A stretch of DNA of 64,000 nt from Candidatus Argoarchaeum ethanivorans (lineage in GTDB: Archaea > Halobacteriota > Methanosarcinia > Methanosarcinales > EX4572-44): positions 3,841-67,840 of the forward strand of contig RPGO01000033.1 in NCBI GenBank assembly GCA_004193545.1, given 5' to 3'. Below, one piece after another: positions 2-36,510 of the stretch; within the stretch, counting starts at the first letter, position 1; the number at the start of each line of letters is the position of its first letter. Under the pieces are notes generated by a model, which was given only the letters and a program-made list of their open reading frames with translations, searched no databases and was not told where the DNA came from. The position numbers and the translations under genes are program-made.

Positions 2-1270
2 ACATTCGGTGATGGTGGCGAAGGTACTGGAGTAACCACAACCCACACATACACAACTGCTGGAGCTAAGAACGTAATACTCAAGGTAACTGACAACGAC
101 AGCGCAACCAACAACACGACCGTAACAATCAATGTACTTAATACTGGAGATGTTCCACCAACCTGCACAGTATCTGTAACGAACTCAACAATCACACCAC
201 CACAGACTACAGACATCACTGCAACATTCTCTGAGCATGTGGACTACACACTCAACATCGAAACCAATGATGGTGCAGTGGTCTACGATTGGGATGGTAC
301 TAGGCATAACGATCGTACCGTGACATGGGATGGCAAAAACGAAACAACTGGCATACAAGTTCCAGATGGCACGTACACAGTGAATCTAACCGTTACAAAT
401 ACTACAACAGGACTTACAGACTATAACAGAACAGAAGCCGTTATTGTATCATCTGTCGTATCCAACCAACCCCCAACTGCATTCATCACAGCCCCAACCG
501 CAAGCGGTACATATCACGTGGGCGATGAAGTATCCTTCCATGCAACGGATTCTTCGGATCCTGATGGATACATTGTCTCGTATAACTGGACATTCGGTGA
601 TGGCAACACAAGTGAGGTAGCAAACACAACCCACACATACGCAACTGCTAACACATACACCGTAATACTCACGGTAACCGACAACGACAGCGCAACCAAC
701 ACCACGACCGTAACAATCGTCGTATCCAACCAACCCCCAACTGCATTCATCACAGCCCCAACCGCAAGCGGTACATATCACGTGGGCGATGAAGTATCCT
801 TCCATGCAACGGATTCTTCGGATCCTGATGGATACATTGTCTCGTATAACTGGACATTCGGTGATGGCAACACAAGTGAGGTAGCAAACACAACCCACAC
901 ATACGCAACTGCTAACACATACACCGTAATACTCACGGTAACCGACAACGACAGCGCAACCAACACCACGACAGTAACAATCAATGTACTTGAGACTGAA
1001 GCAGTTAGTGTCACCCTCTACACTGGATGGAATCTGATAGCGGTTCCTGTGAATGATTCAACTGCCAACACAGCAGAAGAATTGGCATTGAAGATCAACG
1101 GATGCAAAGAAGTTGTTAAATGGGACGCATTAACACAGATGTACATCACCTACAGTAAGATCAGTGGTGATTGGATAGGAACAGACTTTGCCATTACTGG
1201 CGGCATGGGACTCTTCGTGAATGTAGAAGGCAATACAACTGTCGGCTTCACAGGCGGCGCATGGAGTTAA
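2..1270 (+). CDS. PKD-domain repeat cell-surface protein; 5' end lies outside the window
   Basis: The frame is open from the window edge to the stop at 1270. It has repeated PKD-like units (FTFGDG..THTY...Y.V.L.VTDNDSATN..TVTI). The ORF-track start at 239 is an internal GTG. Confidence 0.8.
   Translation, partial: TFGDGGEGTGVTTTHTYTTAGAKNVILKVTDNDSATNNTTVTINVLNTGDVPPTCTVSVTNSTITPPQTTDITATFSEHVDYTLNIETNDGAVVYDWDGTRHNDRTVTWDGKNETTGIQVPDGTYTVNLTVTNTTTGLTDYNRTEAVIVSSVVSNQPPTAFITAPTASGTYHVGDEVSFHATDSSDPDGYIVSYNWTFGDGNTSEVANTTHTYATANTYTVILTVTDNDSATNTTTVTIVVSNQPPTAFITAPTASGTYHVGDEVSFHATDSSDPDGYIVSYNWTFGDGNTSEVANTTHTYATANTYTVILTVTDNDSATNTTTVTINVLETEAVSVTLYTGWNLIAVPVNDSTANTAEELALKINGCKEVVKWDALTQMYITYSKISGDWIGTDFAITGGMGLFVNVEGNTTVGFTGGAWS
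455..982 (+). repeat. 264-bp tandem duplication (2 copies) inside the PKD gene
   Basis: GTCGTATCCAACCAACCCCC.. recurs at 455 and 719 (period 264 bp = 88 codons). The two copies are essentially identical until about 970. Confidence 0.9.
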
Positions 1271-1275
1271 TCACC

Positions 1276-3147
1276 ATGAGAACAAAAGAAATAGTGGGTG
1301 CGATTTTAGCACTCACGTTTTTTTTAGGACTTGCACCATCTGTATTGACAGATATACCTGACACACCGTTTGAAGTCGGTGGACATGTCTATTCTGATGC
1401 AACATCAGTTTCAGGTGCTGCTGTCACTGTAACCAATCTAAACACAAGTGAATCTCTTACCACAACCACAGACAGCAATGGTGCTTATGTGGTGGCTCTG
1501 GGCAATCTGGCGAGTGGACACATTGCAGGAAATATAATAGAAGTAACTGCAACATACAGCGGAATGTCCGGTATTTCCCGTGCACCAAGGTCTAAAAGTC
1601 TCAGCGACAGTCCGCAGATCATCGATGTGACGATTGTAGAAGCTTTTGCCATAACAAGTGGACCACATGCAACGGACATCACCGCCAACACAGCTACCAT
1701 TGAGTGGACAACAAATATGATAGGCAACAGCAGCACCGTTAAGTATGGACTCAATGCATCTCACATGGATGAGTCAGTGAGCAATCAAACTCCGGTAAGA
1801 AACCACAGCATCAAGCTTTCAGGATTGAATTTGGGGACGGTCTACTACTACAATGTAAGCTCCACCAATGCAGAAGGAACTACAGTCAGCAGTTCAGATA
1901 ACTTTACAACCACACAGATACTTAATGTAAATATAGCAGCAAATAGTACAGAGACCTACAATTCCACATCCAATGAAACCACTGTAAAGATAGCTGCAAA
2001 TATAGATATCAATGGTACGATCAATATCACAGAGTATGACTTCCCTGTCAACGATAGCAACCAGGTCCCGCTAAACAAACCAACATTCAGTGTTTCAACA
2101 GGCGAACGACCGGTTGGAAGATATGTGGTTATCGATAACAGCAGCGAGATAAATGAAACCAGTGTCTCATGGATAATAATCAAGATGTGCTATAATGAAA
2201 CAGCGCTCACAGAAGCAGGGCTTGATAAAGATGAGGTTGGAATCGCATGGTACAATGACTCCCTTGGTAAATGGGAAATGCTTGAAACAGGAACTCCACT
2301 CTGGGTCAATGAAGCTCCGATACACCAAGGTGAAACTTGTGTCGCAGCAAACATAAGCCACTTCAGTATATTTGCAGTAACTGCTGCAATACTATATGTA
2401 CCACCAGGAGACGGTGATGGTGATGATGATGATGACGGCGGCTCCAGTGGCGGCGGCTCCAGTGGCACATCCTCTGGTGAGCCTTATGACAACATCGAAA
2501 AGCGTGAAGGACGTGATCAGTATCTCTATGTAAACAGAGAGGTTACCTACAGTTTTGTCACGCCTGAACTTGCTATCTATGAGATTATTATATCTTCCAA
2601 GAAGAACACTAACTTGATTACTGCAAGAATAGAACTTCTTAAAGGCACATCCACACTTGTAGATATACCACCTGAAGGTACGGTGTACAAGAATACCAAT
2701 ATATGGCTTGGTACCTATGGTTTTGCGACATCCGAGAATATCAAGGATGCTGCAATCAGGTTCAAAGTGAAGAAGTCATGGCTTACTGACAACAAGTTAA
2801 GCAAGAACGACATCTCTCTTGCAAAGTGGGAAAGTGGTAACTGGATCAAGCTTTCAACAACGGTTTTGAAAGACGACAGTGGCTATGTCTACTACGAGGC
2901 ACACACAACAAGCTTCTCACCGTTTGCTATCGTAGGGGAGTTTGTTCCACCAGTTGATGGAGAGAAACCAGATGGAGAGAAACCACCAACAGTGGAAGAG
3001 CCACCAGCAGATGGAGTACCACCAGTTGATGGAGAGAAACCACCAGTTAAGAAACCATGGTGGAAGATTCCTGGCTTCACATCGGCCTTCGCAATCGCTG
3101 GGCTATTTGCAGTTGCTTATGCGATGATGCGGCGCCGCAGGAAGTAG
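1276..3147 (+). CDS. secreted surface glycoprotein with FN3-like and PGF-pre-PGF-like regions and a PGF-CTERM sorting signal
   Basis: ATG at 1276 gives the signal-like N-terminus MRTKEIVGAILALTFFLGLAPSVL. The protein has many N-x-S/T sites and a Pro/Glu linker (PPVDGEKP repeats). Its C-terminus is IPGFTSAFAIAGLFAVAYAMMRRRRK (PGF motif + TM + basic tail). Confidence 0.85.
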   Translation: MRTKEIVGAILALTFFLGLAPSVLTDIPDTPFEVGGHVYSDATSVSGAAVTVTNLNTSESLTTTTDSNGAYVVALGNLASGHIAGNIIEVTATYSGMSGISRAPRSKSLSDSPQIIDVTIVEAFAITSGPHATDITANTATIEWTTNMIGNSSTVKYGLNASHMDESVSNQTPVRNHSIKLSGLNLGTVYYYNVSSTNAEGTTVSSSDNFTTTQILNVNIAANSTETYNSTSNETTVKIAANIDINGTINITEYDFPVNDSNQVPLNKPTFSVSTGERPVGRYVVIDNSSEINETSVSWIIIKMCYNETALTEAGLDKDEVGIAWYNDSLGKWEMLETGTPLWVNEAPIHQGETCVAANISHFSIFAVTAAILYVPPGDGDGDDDDDGGSSGGGSSGTSSGEPYDNIEKREGRDQYLYVNREVTYSFVTPELAIYEIIISSKKNTNLITARIELLKGTSTLVDIPPEGTVYKNTNIWLGTYGFATSENIKDAAIRFKVKKSWLTDNKLSKNDISLAKWESGNWIKLSTTVLKDDSGYVYYEAHTTSFSPFAIVGEFVPPVDGEKPDGEKPPTVEEPPADGVPPVDGEKPPVKKPWWKIPGFTSAFAIAGLFAVAYAMMRRRRK

Positions 3148-3188
3148 ACCAAATACGAATGAAGGGAAATATCCCTTCACCCCTTCTC

Positions 3189-3198
3189 TTTTTTTTTT
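3189..3198 (+). terminator. oligo-T tract after the surface protein gene
   Basis: A T10 run lies 42 nt after the stop. Archaeal terminators are typically oligo-T. Confidence 0.4.
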
Positions 3199-3224
3199 AA
3201 CGTATAGGAAAGTATAAACGCAAC
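3199..3224 (+). repeat. 26-nt motif AACGTATAGGAAAGTATAAACGCAAC (copy 1 of a dispersed family)
   Basis: Near-identical copies occur at 12076-12101 (+) and 22523-22548 (-). It contains a TATA-like GTATAAA about 30 nt before ATG 3252. Confidence 0.6.
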
Positions 3225-3319
3225 CAGATACAAATTAGTTGAAGTGATAATATGAAACAAGAGAGATTACTGCAAAAGGTAATGTCCAGAGGGTTGGGTA
3301 CAGAGATGCTGTAGAACGG

Positions 3320-3691
3320 ATGGCTCAGCAACTGGATATAACTGGTTTTGTCGAGAATCTGAAACCTTACTATGTTAAAATTGTTGCAGAAGGAGAAGAA
3401 GACATTCTCGATGAGTTTATATCTCAGATCCGCATAAAAAAGTTTCCGGTATCTGTCAAGAACCTCGATATCGAGTTCAAAGCTGCAACTGGCAAGTTCG
3501 AGTACTTTGACATTAAGCGAGGTGATTGGAGAGAAGAACTTGGAGAGTGTATGGATGTTGCAGGGACACTGCTTTATAGGTCGGTTGAACTTGGAGTGCT
3601 CAGTGAATCTCGAGTAGAGGTTGGTCGAACTTGGAGAGAATATGCTCGAAAAGCAGGATACTCATACGCACATCCTGGCAGATCTCCGTGA
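3320..3691 (+). CDS. acylphosphatase-like domain protein with a frame-disrupted 5' region
   Basis: The same frame upstream (from 3278) reads GNVQRVGYRDAVERMAQQLDITGFVENL, the acylphosphatase signature. No start codon exists in that frame. ATG 3252 lies in another frame. Confidence 0.55.
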   Translation: MAQQLDITGFVENLKPYYVKIVAEGEEDILDEFISQIRIKKFPVSVKNLDIEFKAATGKFEYFDIKRGDWREELGECMDVAGTLLYRSVELGVLSESRVEVGRTWREYARKAGYSYAHPGRSP

Positions 3692-3854
3692 TCAGACGCA
3701 GCAGAACTTTACCATACTTGATACAAAGTATGGAAGGATTGCAGACACGATGGAGAGACTCATTGATGAGATGAGAAACGAACGTAAAGACTCAAGAGTA
3801 ATGATGGAAAATCTCATAGAAGTGATCATCAGGCTTGCCGAATCTAAAAAATAA
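3642..3854 (+). CDS. hypothetical coiled-coil protein (may be the displaced C-terminal part of the preceding gene)
   Basis: A 70-codon ORF from ATG 3642 overlaps the end of 3320-3691 in another frame. No recognisable domain. Confidence 0.3.
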   Translation: MLEKQDTHTHILADLRDQTQQNFTILDTKYGRIADTMERLIDEMRNERKDSRVMMENLIEVIIRLAESKK

Positions 3855-3960
3855 ATCAGAAGAGTAACAAACGGTAGCAGAGATATACTTGCTCAAATTT
3901 AAGCTGTTTTATATTCCAGGATTTTAGCCACAAGGTTGGTACAGCTTGATTGCTGCAGCA

Positions 3961-4123
3961 CTCGATTGCTTCTCGCAATCGAGAATTGGCCGTTAACCGT
4001 TATCTCTGCAAAAATCAAAGGTTATCGGTTATTTCCACTCACGTTGTGTGCAGTTCTGTGTTAATTTTTGCACAACGAAGTTGTACAGTTACTGGTTATT
4101 TCTGCAAAGCGCAAGCTTTGCAG
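3961..4123. repeat. cluster of three hairpin repeats (9-bp stems)
   Basis: The three hairpins are CTCGATTGC-ttctc-GCAATCGAG (3961-3983), TGCACAAC-gaa-GTTGTACA (4069-4088) and CTGCAAAGC-gca-GCTTTGCAG (4102-4123). The GGTTATTT flank is present. Confidence 0.85.
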
Positions 4124-7617: not shown

Positions 7618-7742
7618 CATTTCGCACTTGCTGCGCAATCAAGAGTTACTGGCGATCTCTACTCATGTTGTGTCGTACCGGTCACAGATAGAAAGCTGTT
7701 GAGAAATATATTGGGACGTAAGAATTACAGAGAGAGTGACTG

Positions 7743-7805
7743 AAATGTTTATAAAAAGAAAATCACTAACAAGCCTTGTACCTATAAGTACGGGGTCGGT
7801 GACTT
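7743..7805 (+). repeat. 63-bp conserved element (copy a) ending GGGGTCGGTGACTT
   Basis: It is about 85% identical to the reverse complement of 33303-33365. It contains a TATA-like TTTATAAA and an imperfect hairpin CCTTGTAC-ctataa-GTACGGGG. Confidence 0.8.
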
Positions 7806-7893
7806 ACGACACATTAAAGAACTTCTTGAACGTAATAAGTAAAGCTGTAAGATATATACTCATGTGGATAAATACGGATTCTAAGGTAGAAGA

Positions 7894-8742
7894 ATGGATA
7901 AATCTAAGATAGGTTCTGCAACTGCTAAAGGTGGATTTGCAAACGAGAGAGTAGTTTGCGAAAAGTTTAACAATTGGAAGAAGGATAAAGAAGCTCAAAT
8001 TTGGCTTAAAATTATGGGATACAATATAAAAAAGATTGATTTTGTAAATGCAATCCATATTCCAACCAGAATTAAGAGAAGTGATCTAGAGAAATTCGGA
8101 ATAAGTGAAGAAGATTATGAAGATCTGATGCGATTTAAGAAAGCAGATGCTCAAATCAAGATAATAATTGCAATCGGAAATATATTGAAAATAGAGAATC
8201 TATCTTTAAAAAAGGCCAATTCTGATGCCAATTATAATCAGGTAGACAAGAGACGGGTCGATTCGTATCAAGAGATGTGGGGTTTTGATGAGGATATAGC
8301 CCTTGGACTAAAGCTTTTTACAGGAGAGTTAAATCCTGAATTGTATCCCGAACTTATAGGAAAAAGAGAACTGCGAGATAAGAGAAGGTTGTTTTTGGAC
8401 GAATTGCCAGAATATATTAGAGCCAAAATTTTGAGTTTTTTTAAAGATAACAGGATAATTGTTGTAAATGATATTCTAAAAGGTAGAGGTGGGCTTTCAG
8501 CAGATTGGATGCTTGTTACCAGATACAATAAACAAGACCAGACTACTACATGGATATTTAAGGACATTAACACTGCTATGAATCTCTTTGGCGGTGGTGA
8601 TGTAAGAATTTCTCCCAAACGGAGTTTATATATCGGTAAAATCACAATGCAAAGGAAAGGTGGAACTCCTGATCCAACAAAGTTACAATTCAAGATTAAA
8701 CCGTGTGAACTATTTAAATTGGAGTGTAGGGATGGAAGTTGA
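7894..8742 (+). CDS. type II restriction endonuclease (HinP1I/MspI-like by recollection)
   Basis: It overlaps the downstream DNA methyltransferase by 11 nt. The N-terminal GSATAKGGFANE..FNNWKKDKEAQIWL and C-terminal ITMQRKGG..LQFKI segments resemble that REase family from memory; this is unverified. Confidence 0.6.
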   Translation: MDKSKIGSATAKGGFANERVVCEKFNNWKKDKEAQIWLKIMGYNIKKIDFVNAIHIPTRIKRSDLEKFGISEEDYEDLMRFKKADAQIKIIIAIGNILKIENLSLKKANSDANYNQVDKRRVDSYQEMWGFDEDIALGLKLFTGELNPELYPELIGKRELRDKRRLFLDELPEYIRAKILSFFKDNRIIVVNDILKGRGGLSADWMLVTRYNKQDQTTTWIFKDINTAMNLFGGGDVRISPKRSLYIGKITMQRKGGTPDPTKLQFKIKPCELFKLECRDGS

Positions 8743-9526
8743 CAAAGTATATTTAGGCGACTGCATTGAAATTATGAAAAAACTTCCTGGAAAGTCCATA
8801 GATTTGATCTTCGCAGATCCACCATTTAATATCGGGGTAAAGTATGATAAATACAATGACAATCTATCTTATGAAGAATATTATGATTGGTCAAAAGAAT
8901 GGATATTAGAGACATGCAGATTATTAAAAAAACATGGGTCGATATATATTGCGATTGGAGATGAATTTGCAGCTGAAATAAACATAATTTTGAAACAGAC
9001 CGGATATTACTTTAGAAACTGGATAATATGGTATTACACCTTTGGTCAAAATCAGCGAAAAAAATTTAATCGATCGCATACACATATCTTGTATTTTACT
9101 AAAGACAAAGAGAAGTCTGTATTTAACTCCGATGATATTCGAGTTCCTTCAGCAAGACAACTTGTTTATAAAGATAAAAGGGCAAATCCCAAGGGAAAAA
9201 TTCCAGATGATGTGTGGCAATTCTCAAGGGTATGTGGGACATTTAAAGAACGGTTAGGAACTCATCCGTGTCAGATGCCTGAATCTTTGCTAGAACGGAT
9301 AATCCAGGTAAGTTCTAATGAATGGGATAAAGTTCTGGATCCTTTTGGTGGGACAGGAACAACATCAGCAGTTGCTAAACGATTAAAAAGACATTTTATA
9401 ACGATGGAAATATCAGAAGAATACTATAATCTTATATTAAAAAGGTTGGATGGTAAAGTTGCAGAGATAAAAAGAGATGTGAAGGTTGAATCGGAAAAGC
9501 AGATGACATTACTTGATATGGCGTGA
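8732..9526 (+). CDS. beta-class N6-adenine/N4-cytosine DNA methyltransferase
   Basis: Motif IV DPPFN sits near the N-terminus and motif I LDPFGGTGTT near the C-terminus. The start ATG 8732 gives MEVDKVYLGDC. Confidence 0.85.
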   Translation: MEVDKVYLGDCIEIMKKLPGKSIDLIFADPPFNIGVKYDKYNDNLSYEEYYDWSKEWILETCRLLKKHGSIYIAIGDEFAAEINIILKQTGYYFRNWIIWYYTFGQNQRKKFNRSHTHILYFTKDKEKSVFNSDDIRVPSARQLVYKDKRANPKGKIPDDVWQFSRVCGTFKERLGTHPCQMPESLLERIIQVSSNEWDKVLDPFGGTGTTSAVAKRLKRHFITMEISEEYYNLILKRLDGKVAEIKRDVKVESEKQMTLLDMA

Positions 9527-9687
9527 TAAGAAGAATGCCCAACTAACGGTCCACTGGATGCCCTGTATTTTAATTGAGAGTGGCACGGCTTGGGCTTATG
9601 CACAAAGAAGTTATGCAGGGCTGCAACATAAAAACCGTCTAATTTATGTAATATGTTTTCCATTGAAGCGTGACTTAAGGAGTTATT

Positions 9688-22943: not shown

Positions 22944-24372
22944 TCATCCATTAATCTCTTCCGATTTACGTTCGGATCAAGCGCTTGACTTTGATAAACT
23001 TCAAATAGCTCTATAAGGCTTGCATCAATATCTGAATAGTTGAGAATAGCATCAAAGAGTCGGTGTGCTTTTTCAACAAATATGGTTGCCCATCTCAAGT
23101 GGGTATATCTTGGCGCATTTTCGAGATTGGCCGAGAAAACCAAAAGGTATACACGTCTTGATATTATCAGTGCTAATATCCTCACCCATAAGAGTACTTT
23201 TACTATTTGTGGATTTGAAAAGGGCAAGATGTCAATGCCATATCTGCTTTTGAGTTCTTTAAAGATCTGTTCTATTTCCCATCTTGCCGAATATAGAACT
23301 GCTATATACTCAGCATCAAGTCGATCTGTAGGAATGTTTGTGATATAAGTATGATATTTTTTTCTTCTGTGTTATAAATCGCCACCATGCGGAATTTTTT
23401 CACATCTCTTTTTTGCTTTCCCTTATATTTTCTACGATTGAACTCAACTTCTACCTCAGCATCAATAACTTGCCTTTTCAGGTTATCTATAACCTCACTT
23501 ACTTTCTTTCCCATGATATCTATATAACGTCCACGACACGTACGGTTATTTTTTATAATAAGAGGATCGACCTTACCTTTCAGCCTACTGATAAAGAATC
23601 CACCATTTTCATCAATACGAGCGAAGGTATTGTGTTTATAAAATCCAAGATCTGTTAGTAGTATGCGATCTTTTAACCAGGGACCCATTCGAAGTGTCTT
23701 AACTTCACTGGTGCGTTCCCCATGTAATACTACCCTTTTAGGACCTTCTGCTATTGCACTAATAAGAAGACTTATTTTAACACCAGCAGCTGTTTTTCTT
23801 GTTCTTGCAGCAGGCCATTTATCAGCTAATCTCTCATGTAATCGAATGATTGTACTATCCTGAGCAACGATGTCTTTGAAACCGGATAGTTTATCATTCA
23901 GTTTCCGATTAGAGCTTTGCGTAATGTCTTCCGGACCATGTAAGATACAGGCATGAATAAATTTCACAAGTTCTGGTGTGAAACGATCATAAAAACTACT
24001 ACTACTGATGTGTATTTCACCTTTTTCTTCATAAAGGACGTCGCAAACTTGCTAACGTTCTCTGAAGCTGCACTCCAAATCCTAATGATAATGTCCAGAA
24101 CATAAGTACAGGATTTATCTTTCTGTCTCGCTTGATAAATCCCGTTTCTTTGGCTGTTTTTTGAAGAAATTCTGGTGAAAATAATCTACTGAGGTCTTCT
24201 TCTATTACTTTTGCTTTTTGTTTCTTTTTCGCCACTCAGATTCCCTCCGAATGGATGGGATATTCATGTAAATATATTTAAACTTTTACAGACAGCTTTT
24301 AATCAGTTATAGATGTACTCATTTTTCTAAAAACCATAAGCAAGGAGGCTATTAGATTCCTTAACCGATCAC
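22923..24372 (-). mobile_element. IS4-family-like insertion sequence with a frameshifted transposase
   Basis: A 13-bp perfect inverted repeat GTGATCGGTTAAG (22923-22935) pairs with CTTAACCGATCAC (24360-24372). The transposase is split over ORFs 24235-24029, 23967-23302 and 23227-22931. Confidence 0.65.
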
Positions 24373-28564: not shown

Positions 28565-29374
28565 TTATTCTCTTGAAGCAAATCGTATACTATTTTCCCA
28601 TTCCTGATAAGGTTCAAGATCATATCGTTTTGCCACTTCTTTAAGATACTTCTTAGCTGTCCCTTGGGGCAATTCCAATCTTTCATCAAGTTTTTGATAG
28701 TGAACTAATTTGCCCATAAATACGGACGAATCACGATCCTTATAAAGGGTAGAATACTTAGTATAGTTATGATGCTCATTATACAAATACTCCTCATCCA
28801 ATACTTCTTTTAGCTCATCACTTGAATAAACCCCATATGGCCCCGTATATATCGTTCCCGTATCTAGATCTTTGCTATCTAATTTTAATTCCGTATATTT
28901 AGGAAGACGTGATTTTATAGCACTTCCCTTAAAACCTTTCATGTTTCCAAAGCCAAATTGATCGCAAAGGGTTTGAAAAAACAGTTTTATGTGTTCAGCT
29001 TTACCTAACGATAAAGCTTGCAACCGACTAAGTGGTTCAGGAAGTTCAGAAAATTCTATTTCAGGAGCACATAAGGGGTATATCCTACCTTTACCTTCAG
29101 TCATTTTAGACCAAGAAGCTCCTACTTCAAACCATATCCAAGGTCTATTGATAGAAACAGGCGTCATCAATACAACAACAGCCTTTGCTTTATCTAGATT
29201 TTCTTTGACACTATTTAGCCAGTCAGAACCAGGTTTCATAACGCCAGGTACACTTGAAGCAAAGACATGGACACCATTGGCAAACACACGATCAATTTCT
29301 GCTTTCAAGATTTCCGCGATAGGTTTATCTGTTGCAGCATGACTGACGAATATTACTGGCTTTTCGTTTTTCAT
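28565..29374 (-). CDS. TIR-like domain protein with an unknown C-terminal domain
   Basis: The N-terminal about 130 aa reads IFVSHAATDKPIAEILKAEI..VFASS....G..W...V...L..AKAVVVLMTP.S..RPWIWFEVG, a TIR/ThsB-like pattern including a candidate catalytic Glu. Confidence 0.7.
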   Translation of the reverse strand: MKNEKPVIFVSHAATDKPIAEILKAEIDRVFANGVHVFASSVPGVMKPGSDWLNSVKENLDKAKAVVVLMTPVSINRPWIWFEVGASWSKMTEGKGRIYPLCAPEIEFSELPEPLSRLQALSLGKAEHIKLFFQTLCDQFGFGNMKGFKGSAIKSRLPKYTELKLDSKDLDTGTIYTGPYGVYSSDELKEVLDEEYLYNEHHNYTKYSTLYKDRDSSVFMGKLVHYQKLDERLELPQGTAKKYLKEVAKRYDLEPYQEWENSIRFASRE

Positions 29375-29517: not shown

Positions 29518-30543
29518 CTATGCCTTGGTATTTTTTACAAATTTAATTGTCCGTTCCGCGGAGATTATCAAATCATTGTATGTGAGAATTTCTATTGCGG
29601 GATTCAGTCTCTCCTTCGCCCTTACTTTCTTCAGTTCATCATCAGAAATCCCAAATCCAATAATGAGATAACATTTTGGATTATCAAAGTTTAATCCTTT
29701 GCGTCCAAGGTAGTCTTTTTCTTCTCTCGCAAAATTTAGATACCTTTCTATCTGATTCCATGCATCATTGAATTCAGAAGTAAAATTTCTGTCTTTGCGA
29801 AAAATAGGTACAAATGGCTGTTTAATCTCAAAAATATCCCTATTTTTATTATTGACCTTTACTCCAGTAAAATCAGGGATGTTTTCATCATCAAGTTTTC
29901 TATGACCTTGGACTGATTCGTACCGGAGATCCAATACCCAAGAGTGTCTTTGGATCCATTTTTGATATTCAGATTCATTTGTTTCCCGTCTCTCGAGCAA
30001 TTCTTTTAGCTCATGAATAGGTTTGTCTAAATCAGAGATTTCGTTAGGTGGTAATGTCTTCAGCAGTTTTTTAACCTCCGCCCTACCAATAAAGATACAA
30101 TTTTCTGGACCCGGTTGTTCCCCAACTCTTATTTCTCTGGTTGATTTGGCAAATCTTAGTTCTTCTTTGTTACGATACAAAACAAACCCTCCCGCAAAAC
30201 GCTCTTCGCCCAATAAAAAAATAACCCCGTCTTCGACCCACTGATTGTGCTCTGGTGAAAAAAAGACTTCTTGTCCTGCCATATTAATACTTTTGAAGCT
30301 GTAGTTTTGGGTAATAGTATATCGCATTAAAGCGAGGAGAGATGCTCTTGTTTTGTTCGCAAGAAGGAACTCTGCAATACTCGGATACCTTTTGACCTTT
30401 GAAGGGTCAAGAATTGCCCTCAAAAGATCATCCATTGCCCCCGCACCAAGTAACTTACCCACTTCAGAGTCTGAAAGTTCCTGTAATATGTCCGCCAATT
30501 CCTTGGTTATCTGTTTCCCTCTTTTAATTTTTTCTTCGTTCAT
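29518..30543 (-). CDS. Shedu-like nuclease (DUF4263 / PD-(D/E)xK C-terminal domain) with an unknown N-terminal domain
   Basis: The C-terminal half reads ESEYQKWIQRHSWVLD...IPDF...DIFEIKQP...W.QIERYL......PKCYLIIG....TYNDLI. This matches the DUF4263 layout as I remember it. Confidence 0.7.
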   Translation of the reverse strand: MNEEKIKRGKQITKELADILQELSDSEVGKLLGAGAMDDLLRAILDPSKVKRYPSIAEFLLANKTRASLLALMRYTITQNYSFKSINMAGQEVFFSPEHNQWVEDGVIFLLGEERFAGGFVLYRNKEELRFAKSTREIRVGEQPGPENCIFIGRAEVKKLLKTLPPNEISDLDKPIHELKELLERRETNESEYQKWIQRHSWVLDLRYESVQGHRKLDDENIPDFTGVKVNNKNRDIFEIKQPFVPIFRKDRNFTSEFNDAWNQIERYLNFAREEKDYLGRKGLNFDNPKCYLIIGFGISDDELKKVRAKERLNPAIEILTYNDLIISAERTIKFVKNTKA

Positions 30544-30937: not shown

Positions 30938-31873
30938 TTACCAACGAAGCTGTGTTGCAGCGTCCTCCGGTGATACCGGGTTAATATAAATATTGGTATT
31001 CTCTTCAAAGCCACCAGTAACTGAAAGTTTTGGAAATACTTTCAGATGAAAGTGGTACCTCTTATCAGTGCACTGGAAAAACGCATAGTTATAGGCAAAC
31101 CCCCCAAACAACGCATGCATTCTCGAGAGGACATTACGAAGCATAAAAGCAAGACCGGATACATCAGATAACTTGCTCATGTCTGGGAAATGCTCTTTTG
31201 GCATAATCCACACCTCGAATGGATATTTTGAGAAATAAGGTGCAAAAGCAATCCAGTCGTTCTGCATTAGAATAAGACGCTTCGATATCGACTCTCGCTG
31301 AATAATGTCACAAAATGGACAGGTTTCTGTTTCCATCTCTTTTTTAATGATTGGTGGAATAAGAGGCAGTGCTATCAACTGTGAGTGGCTGTGAGCTATT
31401 GAAGCACCAGCAGAACTTCCATAGTTTTTAAATAATGATACGAATTTTATGCCATCTTTGTTGATGTAGAAGGTGTACCTGTCAGCATATATGCGGATTA
31501 ATCTGGTTATCTCTTCATCCAGGAACATTGAAGGTTCATAATCATGTTCTGGTGTTTCAATGATTACTTCATGAAAACCAAAACCTTCTGCAAGTTGGTC
31601 ACTGCTGCTTTTCTTGGGAGAGAGTGCAGGATACATGTTTGGAATACAGCGCACATTCCAGTCGCGTACCACACCACCTTCATCAGATGTAACTCCCGCG
31701 GGGGTGTACACTGCTGTTGCAGGTGGTGTTTTTTCCTCGTTTCCCTTGCAAAAAATGCACTTCTTGCTATTTGAAGCTTCATCGGTTTTTTTGAAGTCTG
31801 ATGGTCGAAAACCTCGATTTGGCGCAATGATGCAGTACTCATCAAGAAAATAATGCTTTCGTATCTCAGACAT
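30938..31873 (-). CDS. GalT-type HIT-family nucleotidyltransferase (galactose-1-phosphate uridylyltransferase-like)
   Basis: It has a Cys-rich zinc site CIFCKG and the active-site motif HSHSQLIALP. Confidence 0.7.
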   Translation of the reverse strand: MSEIRKHYFLDEYCIIAPNRGFRPSDFKKTDEASNSKKCIFCKGNEEKTPPATAVYTPAGVTSDEGGVVRDWNVRCIPNMYPALSPKKSSSDQLAEGFGFHEVIIETPEHDYEPSMFLDEEITRLIRIYADRYTFYINKDGIKFVSLFKNYGSSAGASIAHSHSQLIALPLIPPIIKKEMETETCPFCDIIQRESISKRLILMQNDWIAFAPYFSKYPFEVWIMPKEHFPDMSKLSDVSGLAFMLRNVLSRMHALFGGFAYNYAFFQCTDKRYHFHLKVFPKLSVTGGFEENTNIYINPVSPEDAATQLRW

Positions 31874-31997
31874 GTCAAATCACATCTTATTCTATTATAA
31901 ATTTATTTGTTTTGCTACACTTGATTGCTGCGCAGCTACAACCTTGCCACACCCGGGATAAATTGCGGGACATCCCTGACAGTTGGACGAGACCTTA

Positions 31998-32291
31998 TTA
32001 TTTCCTTATAGATTCTCTTGCTCTATACTCTGCTTCCGCTTCTTTCTTTTCAAGTGCTTTCTCTATCCAGCGGACAGCATTTAAGTAATGTACTGTTATT
32101 CCAATTCCCCAACCTAAAAGAGGATAAAAAAACCAAATGGCCTCTGGAGAGTATATGAAATTAATAGCTATCAACATAGCGTTAACAAACACATACGCTA
32201 CTAGATGAATTAGAAAGTCCCTTTTCTCCTTCTCTGCATTCATTTCCCTGTATGCTTTTTTGTATTCCTCTAATGATATTTCTTCTGCCAT
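31998..32291 (-). CDS. 2TM-domain small membrane protein
   Basis: It is 97 aa with two adjacent TM helices (FLIHLVAYVFVNAMLIAINFIY / FFYPLLGWGIGITVHYL) flanked by charged helices. Confidence 0.6.
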   Translation of the reverse strand: MAEEISLEEYKKAYREMNAEKEKRDFLIHLVAYVFVNAMLIAINFIYSPEAIWFFYPLLGWGIGITVHYLNAVRWIEKALEKKEAEAEYRARESIRK

Positions 32292-32327
32292 ATTTTTTTA
32301 CCTCTGTACATAAGTCACTATACCCAT

Positions 32328-33287
32328 TCATTCATCTCTTGTAATCATCTTTTCGCTCCCACAGTTTGGGCAAAAAGGAGTTAAAATCGATCTCATTTTA
32401 CCACATTCTTGGCATTTATCAGCTAATTTTTTTCCACAATTTTGACAATAAGGCATATCATATCTGATAGGAAAAGTGCACCTTGGGCATTTATTTTCCT
32501 TTAGTCTAGACATGGAAATACGCTCAAGGCTGAAGAATTGCTTTTTGAGGTATGCAAGCGAGATGGCACATGCAACTACCCCTAAAATGGATATACCGAC
32601 CACATGGACCACTTCCCATACGTTCACGACAATCATGTATATCAATAACAGAGATGCAAATGCCATGAATGCATTAGCGTGGATAGTGTACTTGCTTTTC
32701 ACTTTCTTAGTCTTTAAAAACGTAACAATGGCAACTGCCAATAGGGGCAAAACAAAAGCTAACCTTACTGCCAAAACTTTCAAGCTATATATCTGGTGAG
32801 CAGTATTGTATTCGTCCCGCGCTAAATTACGAGCAGTAGATACTTTCCCCCTCTTTTGATCTAATCTCTCATCGATCTCATCGTAAATAGCTTGTTTCTC
32901 ATTAAGTTTTACTTGAGATTCCTCGTATCTTTCTCTTGCCTCTTCATATTTTCTTTCTTTTACTTCATCCGCCTCTCCTTTATCAAGTATTACCCTGTAT
33001 TCCTCTCTTTTAAACAGGTAGTTTTCTTTAGCACTAAGATATTGATCATTAGCCTTTGCCAAGGCATCACTGGCAATTCTTAACTCTGTATTAATGCTTC
33101 TTTCCACATTTTCCAACTTATAAACACCATATTTTTCATAATAAACGTTTATCTGAGGTATTTTAGGAATATCTTCTAACTCGCTAAGGACATTTATTCC
33201 TCCTATTAGAAGGAAAACAACCATAGCGGAAGCGAGTATTTTTTCGCCCCTTGTAGCCTCCAATTTTTCATCCTCATATTCTGACAT
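32328..33287 (-). CDS. membrane protein with a long coiled-coil and a C-terminal double zinc-ribbon
   Basis: It has an N-terminal TM helix, a charged coiled-coil and three TM helices. The C-terminus is CPRC..(10)..CQNCG...CQECG....CPNCG. AGGAGG precedes the ATG. Confidence 0.6.
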   Translation of the reverse strand: MSEYEDEKLEATRGEKILASAMVVFLLIGGINVLSELEDIPKIPQINVYYEKYGVYKLENVERSINTELRIASDALAKANDQYLSAKENYLFKREEYRVILDKGEADEVKERKYEEARERYEESQVKLNEKQAIYDEIDERLDQKRGKVSTARNLARDEYNTAHQIYSLKVLAVRLAFVLPLLAVAIVTFLKTKKVKSKYTIHANAFMAFASLLLIYMIVVNVWEVVHVVGISILGVVACAISLAYLKKQFFSLERISMSRLKENKCPRCTFPIRYDMPYCQNCGKKLADKCQECGKMRSILTPFCPNCGSEKMITRDE

Positions 33288-33302
33288 TATATTCCTCCTG
33301 AA

Positions 33303-33365
33303 AAGTCACTATACCCCATACTTATAAGTACAGAGCTTGTTAGTGATTTCTTCTTATAAACATTT
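33303..33365 (-). repeat. 63-bp conserved element (copy b)
   Basis: Its reverse complement aligns with 7743-7805 (about 85% identity, two 1-nt indels). It ends GGGGTATAGTGACTT, 15 nt before ATG 33287. Confidence 0.8.
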
Positions 33366-33623: not shown

Positions 33624-34145
33624 TTACTGTTGTTTCAAGTTTTTATGTTTTCTCTCTAAAAAGTTATACACCGTCCCATGTGGAGAGCCATTAATTAACA
33701 TTTCAATGCCTGTGCGTACTACTCGATTTTGTTCAGGGTAACCGATAATGCTTACTGTTTTGCCATAGATCGAAATGCTGCTTCCAGTCATTACTTCAAG
33801 ATACTCCCGCATTTTTCCGCCGGCACCGATGATACGACCATTGACACGCTTTATGTCTTTTTCACTGGATGCATACTCAGATATATCGATTATCTCAAAG
33901 ACCAGTGCTTCATCATTAGAAAGACGCATGGCTTTTTCCGGATTAAAACCCCTGCCTATTGCAAGCACAATTTCCCTTGTACGCAAAGCCATCAATGGGT
34001 CTGCATGACTAATCTCCACCGTGCCGGTGCTGCTGCTTATCTGAAGCTCACATCCTGTTTTCTCTTCGATCGCTCTTTTAACTGCTGCCTGTGGTCCAAT
34101 GAGAACTCCAATTCTCTCGTGCGGTATCATAACATATTGCATCAT
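33624..34145 (-). CDS. KH-domain RNA-binding protein (archaeal Dim2/Pno1-like)
   Basis: It has two KH modules (IGVLIGPQAAVKRAIE; GRIIGAGGKMREYLE). It sits in the conserved aIF1A-Rio1-KH neighbourhood. Confidence 0.8.
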   Translation of the reverse strand: MMQYVMIPHERIGVLIGPQAAVKRAIEEKTGCELQISSSTGTVEISHADPLMALRTREIVLAIGRGFNPEKAMRLSNDEALVFEIIDISEYASSEKDIKRVNGRIIGAGGKMREYLEVMTGSSISIYGKTVSIIGYPEQNRVVRTGIEMLINGSPHGTVYNFLERKHKNLKQQ

Positions 34146-34205
34146 TATATTATCCCTGTGTCGTTATTGTCTCTGCAAAGACTGCGTAATCGAGATTTAT
34201 TGTCT

Positions 34206-34226
34206 CTGTAAAGCGCAGCTTTACAG
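34206..34226. repeat. hairpin repeat
   Basis: CTGTAAAGC-gca-GCTTTACAG preceded by ATTTATTGTCT. Confidence 0.8.
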
Positions 34227-34243
34227 GTGTATAGATGATCATA

Positions 34244-35020
34244 TTACCCCCGCGTTATAGTCGTCATAATTTGTTCATCAGTAGCATTCACACCACGTTT
34301 TTTAAAAAACCTGGCGATATTACTAACATCGCGTTTTAAAAATTGTTCAGACATTGGATGAGAACGCAGCACTCCCTGTCCAATATCAATAATCACTGGA
34401 GTTGCACCCTCCTCGATAAGTATATTGTATTCACTTAAATCGCTGTGAACCATATCAGCATCACAGTACATGATTCTCATATATTCGACAATTTGCTCAA
34501 ACACGTGCTTTGTATCTTCCAATTCCATTTTCACATTTCGAAGTTGTGGGGATGGAATGCTATTCTGCCCAATAAACTCCATGATCAGCACATTTCTTTC
34601 AATAACAAACGGCTGTGGAACCCTTACCCCGGCATCACGTACTCGCTTAAGGTTCTGAAACTCTTTTTTTGCCAGTGTTAAAACAATATTTTTCCTGTCA
34701 TGTCTTACATTCTCAAATCGGTGATCGCCAAGAATGTACTCCTGCACTGCTTTAAAATTGCTCGAGGATATTCTATATATTTTAATAGCAACATCTTTAT
34801 CGTTTTTTCCTATAGCATCAAACACGTTTGCCTCTTTGCCTGTGCTGATTGACCCACCAAATGCCTTGATATAGCCGCGATTTGAAAGATAATAAAGCGT
34901 TTTTAACGTTGCATCATCAAAAACATTTTCAGCTACCTGGTGATTATCTGAATCCTTGTGCTTAATCCGTAGTTTATCCAGTTTAGCTTCTATTTTCAAA
35001 ATTTTTTTATCGGGGCGCAT
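34244..35020 (-). CDS. rio1: RIO-type serine/threonine protein kinase
   Basis: It has a RIO domain: STGKEANVF, a kinase catalytic loop HSDLSEYNIL, and IDIGQ. Confidence 0.9.
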   Translation of the reverse strand: MRPDKKILKIEAKLDKLRIKHKDSDNHQVAENVFDDATLKTLYYLSNRGYIKAFGGSISTGKEANVFDAIGKNDKDVAIKIYRISSSNFKAVQEYILGDHRFENVRHDRKNIVLTLAKKEFQNLKRVRDAGVRVPQPFVIERNVLIMEFIGQNSIPSPQLRNVKMELEDTKHVFEQIVEYMRIMYCDADMVHSDLSEYNILIEEGATPVIIDIGQGVLRSHPMSEQFLKRDVSNIARFFKKRGVNATDEQIMTTITRG

Positions 35021-35162
35021 AACATTGTGTTTTGTGATTAAATTAATGTATCAAATCAATACAGAAACAGAAATGGTATTTTATCTGTGTTAATCTTCTC
35101 GTAATCTTGTGGCTCTACACAAATACCTGAAGTTATATACATTATTTCTCAACATGCCTTTA

Positions 35163-35378
35163 TCACTCTCTAAGATAGCCGCGTCTTTCGAGCCATTCCG
35201 CATGCATTCTTTCATATCGCCATTTTATGTCTGCTTTTTCATTTTGAAATGGCCATGGTACAAGTATGACTACGTCGCCCACCCTGATCCATGTGCGTTT
35301 TTTCATTTTACCAGGTATTCGTCCAATACGGACAACCCCATCCATGCATCGCACTCTTATTCGATTAGCACCGAGCAT
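35163..35378 (-). CDS. eif1a: translation initiation factor aIF-1A (annotated from the first ATG; homology extends upstream to about 35504)
   Basis: The ORF reads MLGANRIRVRCMDGVVRIGRIPGKMKKRTWIRVGDVVILVPW.FQ..KADI.WRY. The upstream in-frame sequence DEVIRVRTPNEKEREVLGIVET is also aIF-1A-like but has no canonical start. Confidence 0.8.
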   Translation of the reverse strand: MLGANRIRVRCMDGVVRIGRIPGKMKKRTWIRVGDVVILVPWPFQNEKADIKWRYERMHAEWLERRGYLRE

Positions 35379-35541
35379 GGTTTCTACAATGCCAAGAACT
35401 TCCCTCTCTTTTTCGTTGGGTGTTCTTACTCTAATAACTTCATCAGTTGGTTTGTTGTTTTTATTACTTTTTTTATATTTCAGTTTAACACCTCTAAATA
35501 TAAACTACTATTGTTCTGGTGGTTATTTATCTTTTTTTAAT

Positions 35542-35982
35542 CTATTGGAAAGTATAATTTTTCCTGTACTGCCGGTTAGCACTCAACTGAACATTATACT
35601 GCAATCTATCGATGTAACTATCCAGTCCTTCAACATCTTTTATGTCTTTTCTAACAAGACTGCTCAGCAGTCGGTGAAACCGCATATTTGGCACAACCCC
35701 AAAAGACAGCAGATGCTGCATGAGTTTCTTTGCAAGTTTTTCACCTGCTTTGTCCCAGTCTGTCAATATTATAATCTCACTATTCATTTGCGAGAGTTTC
35801 TCTGAGAAACTGAAAACAGGGTCGTACGTTGCAAATACAATCCTTCCAGTAACGCCAAGCTTTCTAAGCGTGTGCTCATCCCTGCGACCTTCAACCACCA
35901 CCACCACTGCACCATCAAGTGAGGATACTCCAAGTTCTTTTATCAGCTCTTTCACTCGCTCGAGTCGTTTCTCTTTATCCAT
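35542..35982 (-). CDS. small Toprim-domain protein
   Basis: It reads VVVVEGRRDE..L..LG and ILTDWDKAGEKL (Toprim E and DxD). It overlaps the upstream gene by 8 nt. Confidence 0.7.
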   Translation of the reverse strand: MDKEKRLERVKELIKELGVSSLDGAVVVVVEGRRDEHTLRKLGVTGRIVFATYDPVFSFSEKLSQMNSEIIILTDWDKAGEKLAKKLMQHLLSFGVVPNMRFHRLLSSLVRKDIKDVEGLDSYIDRLQYNVQLSANRQYRKNYTFQ

Positions 35983-36292
35983 CGTGTAATTTATCCTCTA
36001 CTATTCTTAAAACTTTGTCAATGCTGATATCATCGATTTTAATGCTTTTTTTGCTCGCTGTACTGCCAGAACAAATAGATACTTTTTGCACTGGAACGTT
36101 AAACAAAGTGGAAAACTCGACCATTAGCTCTTTATTTGCCAATCCCTTCTGCGGAACAGAACTAACGCGCACTTCTATTCGCTTTCGCCATTGGTTGTAG
36201 CCCTGTATCTGGAAAAACTTTGCACCAGCATTAACATCCACATCGATGCACACGCCATCAGGAAGTGTGTGAAGAGCATTCGAAAGGCTCAA
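35975..36292 (-). CDS. DUF167 (YggU-like) family protein
   Basis: It is about 105 aa with V.V...A.........R..V.V...P..G.AN.EL..F.. and SGSTASKKSIKI. Confidence 0.6.
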   Translation of the reverse strand: MSLSNALHTLPDGVCIDVDVNAGAKFFQIQGYNQWRKRIEVRVSSVPQKGLANKELMVEFSTLFNVPVQKVSICSGSTASKKSIKIDDISIDKVLRIVEDKLHDG

Positions 36293-36294
36293 TC

Positions 36295-36504
36295 TTAACC
36301 ACCTGATGCAATCACAAGGATTGTTATCTCACCATCAGGTAAGACAATTTTATCAAATGGCTGTGGAGCATCGTTCTGGAGCACCACAACGGTTTCGGGA
36401 TTGATATCAAATCTTTCTAAAACATCATCATACGTGCTGGATTCATCCACTGTAATGCATTCTCGCTGGACCACATTTGTACATATACTAACAGTTATTT
36501 CCAA
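36295..36504 (-). CDS. ubiquitin-like small modifier / sulfur carrier (MoaD/ThiS/SAMP family)
   Basis: It is 69 aa ending in the diglycine ..VIASGG. The beta-grasp-sized size fits. Confidence 0.65.
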   Translation of the reverse strand: MEITVSICTNVVQRECITVDESSTYDDVLERFDINPETVVVLQNDAPQPFDKIVLPDGEITILVIASGG

Positions 36505-36510
36505 TGTATT

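Follow-up and report, generated by a model that had tools for sequence, protein, structure and literature searches.

The window analysed here, a stretch of 64,000 nucleotides from contig RPGO01000033.1 of Candidatus Argoarchaeum ethanivorans, contains two copies of a 63-bp element together with several partial relatives, and the nature of this element and of the DNA behind it is the subject of this work. Archaeal genes in the window include those for a CTP-dependent riboflavin kinase, SRP54, RIO1, a KH/Dim2-like protein and a protein with a PGF-CTERM motif. The nearest clade is that of the GoM-Arc1 ethane oxidisers (DNA 92-95% identical to RXIJ01000016), and the KH protein is 97% identical to one encoded on a contig from a Ca. 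Argoarchaeum enrichment culture. An exact-protein look-up returned no record for two window proteins.

Pairwise alignment of 7743-7805(+) with 33303-33365(-) gives 86% identity (85.9%; 55 of 64 alignment columns), in line with the value of about 85% over 63 nt noted in an earlier interpretation made from the letters of the DNA alone (hereafter the sequence-only reading). The recurrences listed there, at 43224-43262, at about 44923-44953 and as a tail at 32312-32325(-), all exist as well. The 3' part of the element has a further copy at 43224-43262(+), the segment 44916-44952(+) shows the flanks of the element's core around a different hairpin, and 32312-32325(-) is a hairpin-less 14-mer identical to the tail of the 33303 element; by chance, an exact 14-mer is expected approximately 5e-4 times per 128 kb. 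The bare heptamer GTGACTT is not enriched in the window (9 observed versus 8.6 expected), so the weak copies had to be assessed by models. Model R1, a covariance model built from related sites in other genomes and including no site of the window, ranks 43225-43262(+) highest (56.9 bits, E = 3.5e-14), followed by 33303-33342(-) (37.1 bits, E = 2e-8), 7767-7805(+) (28.7 bits, E = 6e-6) and 44916-44952(+) (22.0 bits, E = 5.5e-4); the tail-only copy at 32312-32325(-) reaches an E of 0.23 only. In a related genome, locus L100 matches the 33303 copy across 72 nt (E = 6e-18).

Within copy 1, a TATA-like box (7748-7755, TTTATAAA) precedes a core (7767-7805) composed of AAGC, a hairpin with arms CCTTGTAC/GTACGGGG and then TCGGTGACTT. 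In copy 2, the box lies at 33360-33353 and the core at 33342-33303. The copies are listed below with array labels that belong to the interpretation developed in the following sections, namely that the right end (RE) of an IS200-type insertion sequence (IS) probably heads one-directional arrays in which each cassette has its own RE-type site at its 3' end.

7699-7742 (+): decayed 3' end of tnpA plus spacer, reading ...GHR*KAVEKYIGT*; the stretch is kept in the syntenic L100
7743-7805 (+): copy 1 of the 63-bp element, head of array A; R1 28.7 bits; synteny with L100 ends at 7805
33303-33365 (-): copy 2 of the 63-bp element, head of array B; 85.9% identical to copy 1; R1 37.1 bits
43056-43262 (+): frameshifted 3' remnant of tnpA (by tblastn) plus RE core (43225-43262), head of array C; R1 56.9 bits

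Upstream of copy 1, positions 7699-7730 encode ...VEKYIGT*, the C-terminal motif of the transposase TnpA, and 22 nt (TGTTGAGAAATATATTGGGACG) are identical to the 3' end region of tnpA at locus L009; a tblastn match of the L112 C-terminus to 7680-7718 is weak (E = 0.6). For head C, tblastn aligns 43056-43253 with residues 112-155 of intact TnpA at 82% identity (E = 3e-20). The segment 43056-43262 aligns with full IS copies, and its synteny with both L023 and L072 ends exactly at 43262. This head represents another RE subfamily, one with an overlap between RE and tnpA stop codon (...KSLCTGSVLKSGVW*). Copy 2 at 33303 consists of the 63 nt only and has no tnpA remnant on its upstream side. All three window heads are decayed, and since they carry tnpA remnants or none, any activity would need a TnpA supplied from elsewhere in the genome. 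The statement of the sequence-only reading that the window holds no integrase or recombinase therefore stands for intact genes, but not for remnants, as those of tnpA lie just upstream of two copies. A metagenome scan with a pattern of the window subfamily (AAATCACTAACAAGCYYTGTAC) gave 0 matches and so no further alleles of the window heads.

Relation to IS200-type insertion sequences

A genome search with the pattern TAAGTNYGGGGT(N2-3)GTGACTT yielded at least 117 loci, and counts over these loci are given among the 117 matches listed. Nearly all of the matches listed lie in metagenome-assembled genomes (MAGs) of anaerobic methanotrophic archaea (ANME-1, ANME-2 or ANME-3), GoM-Arc1, Methanoperedens or Methanothrix. 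Viral contigs contain 0 matches to the core pattern, and there is thus no sign of a virus origin. Matches in MAGs outside the ANME and methanogen lineages are L022 (Nitrosotalea), L025 (Desulfobacteria), L082 (Atribacteria), L106 (Actinomycetota), L116 ('uncultured bacterium') and L061 and L080 (Clostridia). The two clostridial matches have no 5' arm of the hairpin and look like chance; the rest have a full RE or a tnpA context and may reflect either binning contamination or real transfer.

A conserved core of approximately 40-48 nt, joined to many unrelated upstream sequences, emerges from these loci. The part taken as functional, about 38 nt long, starts with A.GC, continues as an imperfect 8-bp hairpin (loop of 4-6 nt) and closes with 10-11 nt whose last letters are GTGACTT. 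A near-full tnpA precedes the core in 15 loci, tnpA fragments precede it in 25, and 77 have no adjacent tnpA. In one set of loci the core overlaps the 3' end of an open reading frame (ORF) of about 150 codons, reading ...LWAPSCFHGSVGHGWEVVERYIQNQEKPNAKSLCTGSVLKSGVW*. The ORFs next to the core encode Y1 transposases (Pfam Y1_Tnp, E = 1e-25 to 3e-32) that score 120-128 bits with the NCBIfam IS200 equivalog (transpos_IS200; cutoff 55). These TnpA proteins comprise about 150 amino acids and carry a Y...Q motif (YIQNQ or YIETQ). Intact elements contain tnpA only and measure about 0.5-0.65 kb; the stretch from the first base of tnpA through the RE covers about 470 nt. When full copies from separate contexts are aligned, similarity is lost exactly after GTGACTT. 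Derivatives resembling miniature inverted-repeat transposable elements (MITEs) are internally deleted and keep the left-end hairpin (GGGACTGTCACG...CTGACAGTCCC, located 5' of the tnpA promoter), the promoter, the tnpA start and the RE.

Several of these properties are those of the IS200/IS605 family, for which IS608 is the reference: a subterminal imperfect hairpin on a single strand, an adjacent Y1 HUH transposase of about 150 amino acids and the existence of miniature deleted derivatives. From the hairpin foot to the 3' end of the element there are 10-11 nt; the corresponding distance to the right-end cleavage site in IS608 is 10 nt (PMC3201880). Because the core adjoins tnpA, similarity stops at GTGACTT, the distance to the hairpin is IS608-like and the deleted derivatives retain this end, the 63-bp element is almost certainly the RE of an IS200-type (tnpA-only) member of the IS200/IS605 family. 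An IS200-type family with such REs is common in ANME-1, ANME-2, GoM-Arc1, Methanoperedens and Methanothrix. The G-T positions in the stem and the strict strand polarity are consistent with strand-specific cleavage and with transposition by way of a single-stranded DNA circle. By analogy, the core would act on one DNA strand, with TnpA binding the hairpin in single-stranded DNA and cutting after the terminal CTT.

Y1 enzymes of the HUH family also accompany repetitive extragenic palindromes (REPs) and bacterial interspersed mosaic elements (BIMEs), where they are named REP-associated tyrosine transposases (RAYTs). The REPs resemble the present sites in being short hairpin repeats with a conserved 5' tetranucleotide that often follow genes. 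The TnpA proteins found here score only 20-24 bits with the NCBIfam model REP_Tyr_transpos (cutoff 80), as against 120-128 bits with the IS200 equivalog, and since the RAYT score lies far under its cutoff, the system is not of the REP/RAYT type. RAYT systems have, moreover, been reported only from bacteria (PMC6006769), and REPs are dispersed over the genome without forming polar arrays headed by a transposon end.

Junctions, cassette-end sites and array polarity

The sequence-only reading had offered an att-like junction for gene cassettes as one possible role of the element and had proposed empty-site comparisons with related strains. Synteny indeed breaks at the element's 3' boundary. Against L100, the window is 92% identical over 4.8 kb, and the alignment ends exactly at 7805 and resumes at 9614; between these points, the window contains 1,808 bp with a restriction-modification pair, versus an unrelated 599 bp with a small ORF in L100. 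Across 15 locus pairs that share 0.5-5.3 kb upstream (the longer stretches include host genes), the alignment ends at position 0 in 11, at +1 in one and 2-10 nt past the RE end in three. Compared with L044, L062 has an insertion of 1,032 bp with one gene for a metallo-beta-lactamase (MBL)-fold protein, which extends from just after GTGACTT to the end of an L-type site (defined below). Compared with L017, L031 has an insertion of 1,731 bp with one Fic gene, ending in an S-type site. Both insertions terminate in a hairpin followed by ...CTT. In the region of array C, the window has 4.7 kb versus 1.8 kb in L072 (with a DUF262-like gene), and synteny is back at 47954. The comparisons L062/L044, L031/L017 and window/L072 are clean at both boundaries. 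L031 and L017 also differ by an indel of 1,038 bp in the region shared downstream of the array (L031 +2929..3968 versus L017 +1048); no recognised site bounds it, so it is a different kind of insertion.

The DNA behind the REs contains further sites of RE-type architecture, of which two types are distinguished. Both have GATGC and a 7-9-bp hairpin of varied sequence; S-type sites end in T N2-3 GTGACTT and L-type sites in GTGGCGNGGNTGGGGCTT (...GGGGCTT). The S sites match the canonical RE column for column (A.GC, 8-bp stem, 4-nt loop, stem, T N2-3 GTGACTT). S and L sites typically occur 70-100 nt past the stop codons of co-oriented genes, with the next ORF about 30 nt further. Scanning the 64 kb with R1 and with a second model used for L-type sites (R2) gives no more than six significant matches, namely heads A, B and C plus the ends of A1, B2 and C1, and every end shares the strand of its head. 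An inverted repeat at 2742/5146 that R2 flagged is a chance match. The cassettes assigned in the window, each with the site that ends it, are as follows.

7806-9597 (+): cassette A1, R.HinP1I-like restriction endonuclease (7894-8742) and N4/N6 DNA methylase (8660-9526), both by Pfam
9553-9597 (+): end of A1, L-type site; R2 34 bits, E = 1.4e-8; GGATGC, decayed hairpin, GTGGCACGGCTTGGGCTT
32312-33302 (-): cassette B1, double zinc-ribbon membrane protein (33287-32328; Pfam DZR)
32325-32312 (-): end of B1, hairpin-less remnant of an RE-type site, GGGTATAGTGACTT; exact 14-mer of the copy 2 tail; R1 E = 0.23
31934-32311 (-): cassette B2, 2TM-domain protein (32291-31998; Pfam 2TM)
31978-31934 (-): end of B2, L-type site; R2 24.7 bits, E = 1.2e-5
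43263-44952 (+): cassette C1, DUF7019 protein (43594-44370; Pfam DUF7019) and an ORF of 150 amino acids (44363-44815)
44916-44952 (+): end of C1, S-type site; R1 22 bits, E = 5.5e-4; GATGC, CCTCCCG/CGGGAGG, TCGTGACTT
44953-47855 (+): cassette C2, SIR2-TPR protein (45132-46964; Pfam SIR2_2, TPR) and two small ORFs
47811-47855 (+): end of C2, decayed S-type site, GATGCC...GGTCGTTGACGTT; read by eye, not significant with R1 or R2

Cassette A1 starts at 7806 with ACGACACATT, and its site finishes with ...GGGCTT at 9597. The ribosome-binding site of B1 begins 5 nt past the RE end. The hairpin at 44916-44952 folds at -8.7 kcal/mol (z -4). Array B is taken to end after B2 because the next gene, encoding a DUF4921 protein (31873-30938), is conserved in a distant relative (L239). 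The DUF4921 gene and the gene of about 340 codons that follows it are neighbours in L239 too, so at least that pair is not a cassette. Adjoining the DUF4921/GalT-like gene (30938-31873(-)) are a gene for a TIR_2-domain protein (28565-29374(-)) and one for a Shedu-like (SduA_C) protein (29518-30543(-)).

The structure of the sites is conserved beyond their flanks. Over 34 S and L sites, 85% of the hairpin cells are paired, compared to 63% in shuffles, and cells with a double change number 63 versus 25. The observed covariation was reached in 0 of 500 shuffles, and slid registers give 56% pairing at most. The distribution of the sites is strongly polar. Of the secondary sites around the listed loci, 40 share the strand of the RE and lie downstream of it, 0 (under strict criteria) share its strand and lie upstream, and 3 are on the opposite strand, with 377 kb of DNA searched on one side and 384 kb on the other. 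A second sample of 120 metagenome loci was drawn by the L/S hairpin, independently of the RE. All 24 occurrences of the canonical RE pattern in these loci lie upstream of the query site and on its strand, and R1 applied to 100 of the 120 gives 36 further matches, all on the strand of the query site. The longest array has five sites (L213). A generic scan for any hairpin followed by [GA]CTT shows no overall strand bias (48 versus 40); the strand signal emerged only after the conserved GATGC flank was recognised. The junction proposal of the sequence-only reading is supported, and beyond what the letters alone could show, by the synteny breaks at the element's 3' end and by cassettes that each close with a site of the same architecture. 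The RE end is very probably the head of polar cassette arrays with RE-type sites.

Some sequences around the sites are worth recording in their own right. In the metagenome loci L125, L128, L135, L161, L171, L174, L191, L208 and L210, the L hairpin is followed by GTGGACTGTGCCTCGTAGCTTAATCAGCCAGAGGGTTA and not by GTGGCG..GGGGCTT. This sequence resembles the start of a tRNA, a candidate that was rejected as ARAGORN finds no tRNA gene. A non-coding module, CGGGAGRCT..CAYGA..GGAGGTCGGG..GGGTTTTRTGGGGTGAG, directly follows ...CTT at no fewer than 24 of 312 site ends, a lower bound obtained with a small nhmmer profile of the left-end-like motif. Examples occur in the first 50-230 nt past the RE in L006, L010, L016, L020, L041, L082 and L097, and after L sites in L156, L169, L202, L205 and L221. 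Its resemblance to an IS left end with promoter suggests that IS copies themselves insert behind RE-type sites. A gene immediately after the RE (CGGGAG...GGAGGTCGGG, then ...GTGATGATTGAAGTTCG...) was considered and discarded, the reading frames being only 17-62 codons long; the sequence, conserved after many REs, may be better read as a left-end or promoter-like module. Different elements with an RE are followed, precisely from the RE end onward, by another conserved sequence, ...GAGAGGTAAGAAAAGTAAGTGATGATTGAAGTTCGWYCAGAAGG... (L023, L052, L071 and L096, from +1 to +300..1900; also L006, L016, L082 and L084). It is probably non-coding, because its reading frame is just 17-62 codons.

A position 70-100 nt behind the stop codons of co-oriented ORFs, covarying hairpins and T-rich sequence after some sites are also what terminators or RNA-stability elements would present, in which case the S, L and RE hairpins would be 3'-untranslated structures comparable to REP/BIME. 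This is very improbable. The sequence after ...CTT is not consistently T-rich, the conserved single-stranded flanks, a 5' GATGC and a 3' GTGACTT or GGGGCTT, align with the transposon end column for column, and the indels end exactly at the last T. Sites in the window are, furthermore, confined to arrays behind REs, with two significant L-site matches in 64 kb.

A second proposal of the sequence-only reading was a portable promoter or 5' leader. The 63-bp version differs from the 38-nt version by an extra 25 nt, characteristic of the GoM-Arc1 subfamily and situated between the tnpA stop codon and the hairpin. A TATA-like box (TTTATAAA or TTTATAAG) occupies a fixed position in eight members of this subfamily and may act as an outward-reading promoter. 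Other variants have a strong box resembling a B recognition element (BRE) and TATA box (GAAAAGCTTTTATATA) 40-90 nt upstream, and downstream genes are co-oriented and may begin 17-90 nt past the element. That an archaeal promoter or leader with a hairpin acting in the RNA is the sole explanation is nevertheless quite improbable. The core occurs without a TATA box inside the tnpA coding sequence (43225-43262, family A1) and also at the 3' ends of cassettes, so a promoter cannot explain what the copies share, and the exact synteny breaks at GTGACTT are left without explanation. With the usual archaeal spacing, the box at 7748-7755 predicts a transcription start near 7778, inside the 5' arm of the hairpin, and the RNA would consequently lack the hairpin. 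Together with the absence of any Rfam match in the whole window at gathering thresholds, this leaves the suggested function as RNA unsupported; a tRNA/tmRNA (transfer-messenger RNA) scan likewise found none. The promoter proposal thus holds at best as a secondary property of one subfamily and does not account for the core. By analogy with the integron promoter Pc, to which the GoM-Arc1 box and the BRE/TATA-like boxes of other heads would be the counterpart, a promoter might tentatively be regarded as an added property of the head.

Where IS200/IS605 elements include a tnpB gene, the omega RNA terminates at the RE boundary and extends into the flank. The element could on that model be a guide-RNA scaffold (omega RNA or right-end RNA) that serves a TnpB-type nuclease, its guide lying 3' of GTGACTT, and the BRE/TATA-like promoter that some variants have upstream would fit. 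It is hardly to be credited here, as there is no adjacent tnpB-like ORF in the window or in the intact elements examined, and in the absence of tnpB the element is not a TnpB guide RNA. Rfam gives no match for this reading either, and it leaves the cassette-end sites unexplained.

Cassette mobility and the alternative of decayed copies

A cassette comprises one to a few genes of the same orientation. Forty site-bounded segments have a median length of 1.3 kb, and their coding capacity is markedly asymmetric (13,125 amino acids on the array strand versus 2,467 on the other). As genes may begin 5-17 nt past the RE end, there is no room for a left end. The cargo includes HicA/HicB (three times), Fic/SoFic (three times), PIN, GNAT, Macro and Schlafen-AlbA2 proteins, NosD-like surface proteins and peptidases, and many cassette proteins are without any match. 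One cassette was found in two contexts: it follows an L site in L066 and an RE in L089, the copies being 85-93% identical. A cassette of about 600 bp is shared, at 86% identity, between a MAG of ANME-1 (Methanophagaceae; L057, +1972..2573) and the Methanosarcinales loci L017 (+48..632) and L031 (+1799..2394); the L031 copy contains an unannotated ORF of 82 amino acids. Sequence similarity at this level points to a recent transfer between archaeal orders.

The simplest alternative is that all of this represents ordinary decayed IS200 copies: solo REs and MITE remnants would pile up in dispensable, fast-changing regions, and the S and L sites would be remnants of separate insertions. Much of the inventory agrees with such an origin, since 77 of the 117 listed REs have no adjacent tnpA and 25 only fragments, the window copies are decayed, MITE-like derivatives exist and left-end-like sequence abuts at least 24 of 312 site ends, so that IS copies do insert side by side. 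Insertion of IS200/IS605 elements is also known to be strand-biased (PMC5027513). Yet decay predicts neither synteny breaks at the last base of the RE nor 40 downstream versus 0 upstream same-strand sites. It does not predict that a gene and its site are gained or lost as a single CTT-bounded unit, or that one cassette stands behind an RE in one place and behind an L site in another. Finally, the S and L sites carry no tnpA or left-end remnants on their 5' side and lie 70-100 nt past co-oriented stop codons. We therefore consider decayed copies an unlikely explanation, and favour the reading in which REs head cassette arrays.

Several observations weigh against the favoured reading. Both 63-nt copies have hairpins that, folded as a free single strand, are no more stable than those of shuffled sequences (z ~0), and decay has affected the hairpins at 47811 and at both L sites of the window; the arrays there may consequently be fossils. 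No intact tnpA is present in the 64-kb window. Given the few independent intact copies available, the left boundary and the target rule of the complete IS can be set only in part, and the guide-to-cleavage-site pairing is not reliably derivable by analogy with IS608. Covariation was tested in the S and L sites alone because the search pattern had fixed the 3' arm of the RE. A lagging-strand bias of IS200/IS605 insertion could partly explain the co-orientation, though it would not explain the asymmetry between upstream and downstream sites.

The comparisons themselves also have weak points. Both flanks are syntenic in only three or four of them, and the distance from the last recognisable site to renewed synteny leaves 16 nt (9598-9613) in one case and 98 nt (47856-47953) in another without explanation. 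Alignments that start right after a site are only weakly enriched (19 of 2438), and the junctions of the cassette shared by L066 and L089 are off by 4 nt. Nearly all comparators are MAGs, in which repeats are prone to misassembly. A case in point is L238 (RPGP01000011.1, GCA_004193555.1), which is filed under a Desulfobacteraceae (Eth-SRB1) bin and is 97.5% identical to window positions 33842-37722. Given this identity and its archaeal core genes, L238 is probably mis-binned. It flips into an inverted self-copy at position 10303 and is rearranged, probably by misassembly, right at array B, so it offers no comparison there.

A candidate exchange mechanism and known systems

The organisation described above could be produced by TnpA-mediated exchange of cassettes between two RE-type sites, a proposal we regard as having about equal chances of being right and wrong. 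The observations fit the chemistry of IS608 with a single modification. TnpA, acting in trans on an RE-type hairpin, would cut after CTT, so that the site would end in a 3'-OH and the following DNA would be attached by a 5'-phosphotyrosine bond. The second active site of the TnpA dimer would hold another RE-type site of the same strand. Strand exchange would then join the upstream RE to the distal flank, while the 3' site of the cassette would be joined to the cassette's own 5' end, giving a single-stranded circle of cassette plus site. In the reverse reaction, such a circle could be pasted behind the CTT of any RE-type site, and no left end would be needed. What the sequences show is the identity of the element as an IS200-type RE, the exact junctions, the polarity of the arrays, the covariation of the hairpins, the cassette indels and the occurrence of one cassette in different contexts; that TnpA acts on S and L sites, that a single-stranded circle forms and that the promoter is active is inferred. 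IS608 TnpA is capable of forming synaptic complexes containing two REs in vitro (PMC3201880).

The arrangement resembles that of integrons in several respects: cassettes of about 1 kb are co-oriented in one direction, each ends in a 3' imperfect hairpin site whose structure is conserved and whose sequence is varied, a recombinase gene and possibly a promoter stand at the head, the cargo is rich in toxin-antitoxin, defence and unknown-function genes, and site recognition is expected on single-stranded DNA. That the arrays are integrons proper, with a tyrosine recombinase and attC sites, is next to impossible, even though their cassettes are co-oriented, mostly promoterless and each closed by such a hairpin site. 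The sites have neither the R''/L''...L'/R' organisation of attC nor its GTTRRRY core, and the gene at the head of an array, if any, encodes a Y1 HUH transposase rather than an integrase. No tyrosine recombinase occurs among the window ORFs scanned with Pfam (those flanking and between the arrays), a result that for the related loci comes from a non-exhaustive scan. Without IntI and attC boxes, this is not an integron; the resemblance is one of architecture and working, not of membership. The system further differs from integrons in that the head is a transposon end, mostly without an enzyme gene, that the hosts are archaea and that the mechanism is deduced rather than known.

Unlike in other IS200/IS605 elements, the terminal ACTT or GCTT seems to be reused here as an insertion point, with DNA accumulating behind the RE, and RE-type sites of the S and L kind are in many cases solitary and close off unrelated genes at their 3' ends. 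Further peculiarities are the overlap of the RE with the tnpA stop in one subfamily and the TATA-like box within the RE of the window subfamily. ISCR/IS91 elements likewise combine an HUH transposase with variable foreign genes abutting one specific element end. They differ in having Y2 enzymes and rolling-circle replication past the terminator end, and in lacking hairpin sites per cassette and site-bounded indels of cassette size. Palindrome-associated transposable elements (PATEs) and MITEs are comparable insofar as several upstream families found here are internally deleted IS copies. Unlike these, the window copies have no left end, and S and L are single right-end-type sites on cargo genes instead of miniatures with a left and a right end.

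Taken together, ANME-1, ANME-2, GoM-Arc1, Methanoperedens and Methanothrix might possess an integron-like cassette system run by the HUH (Y1) transposase of an IS200 family. In it, the RE would serve as docking site (in some subfamilies also as promoter), a hairpin site would replace attC, and single-stranded circles would carry genes for defence, toxin-antitoxin systems and surface proteins to new places within a genome and from one archaeal order to another. For this complete picture, the arguments for and against are roughly in balance. While the RE itself is a member of a known IS family, a full-text literature search found no description of cassette arrays headed by an IS200 RE; the search left subscription journals mostly uncovered, and an earlier description is possible.

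If the mechanism is true, the simplest transposase known, an HUH enzyme of 150 amino acids credited so far with moving nothing but its own IS, would be a general cassette-exchange system, and the integron principle would have a second, independent origin, in archaea. It would also explain the exchange of defence and toxin-antitoxin genes among uncultured methane- and alkane-oxidising archaea. The signature of A.GC, hairpin and ...CTT provides a simple way to locate variable gene pools in these genomes, and sites of 38-45 nt with a small enzyme could serve single-strand DNA insertion tools. Irrespective of the mechanism, an unexplained repeat is now a defined IS end, and the three accessory islands of the window become cassette arrays with exact boundaries.

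The window has two other repetitive or mobile features. A direct repeat of about 65 nt with a period of 264 nt (480-545 and 744-810), within the ORF at 239-1270, probably reflects tandem domain repeats of a surface protein. The AT-rich region at 22-26 kb contains a fragment of a DDE_Tnp_1 transposase gene (23302-23967(-)), which belongs to another IS family and has no relation to the 63-bp element.

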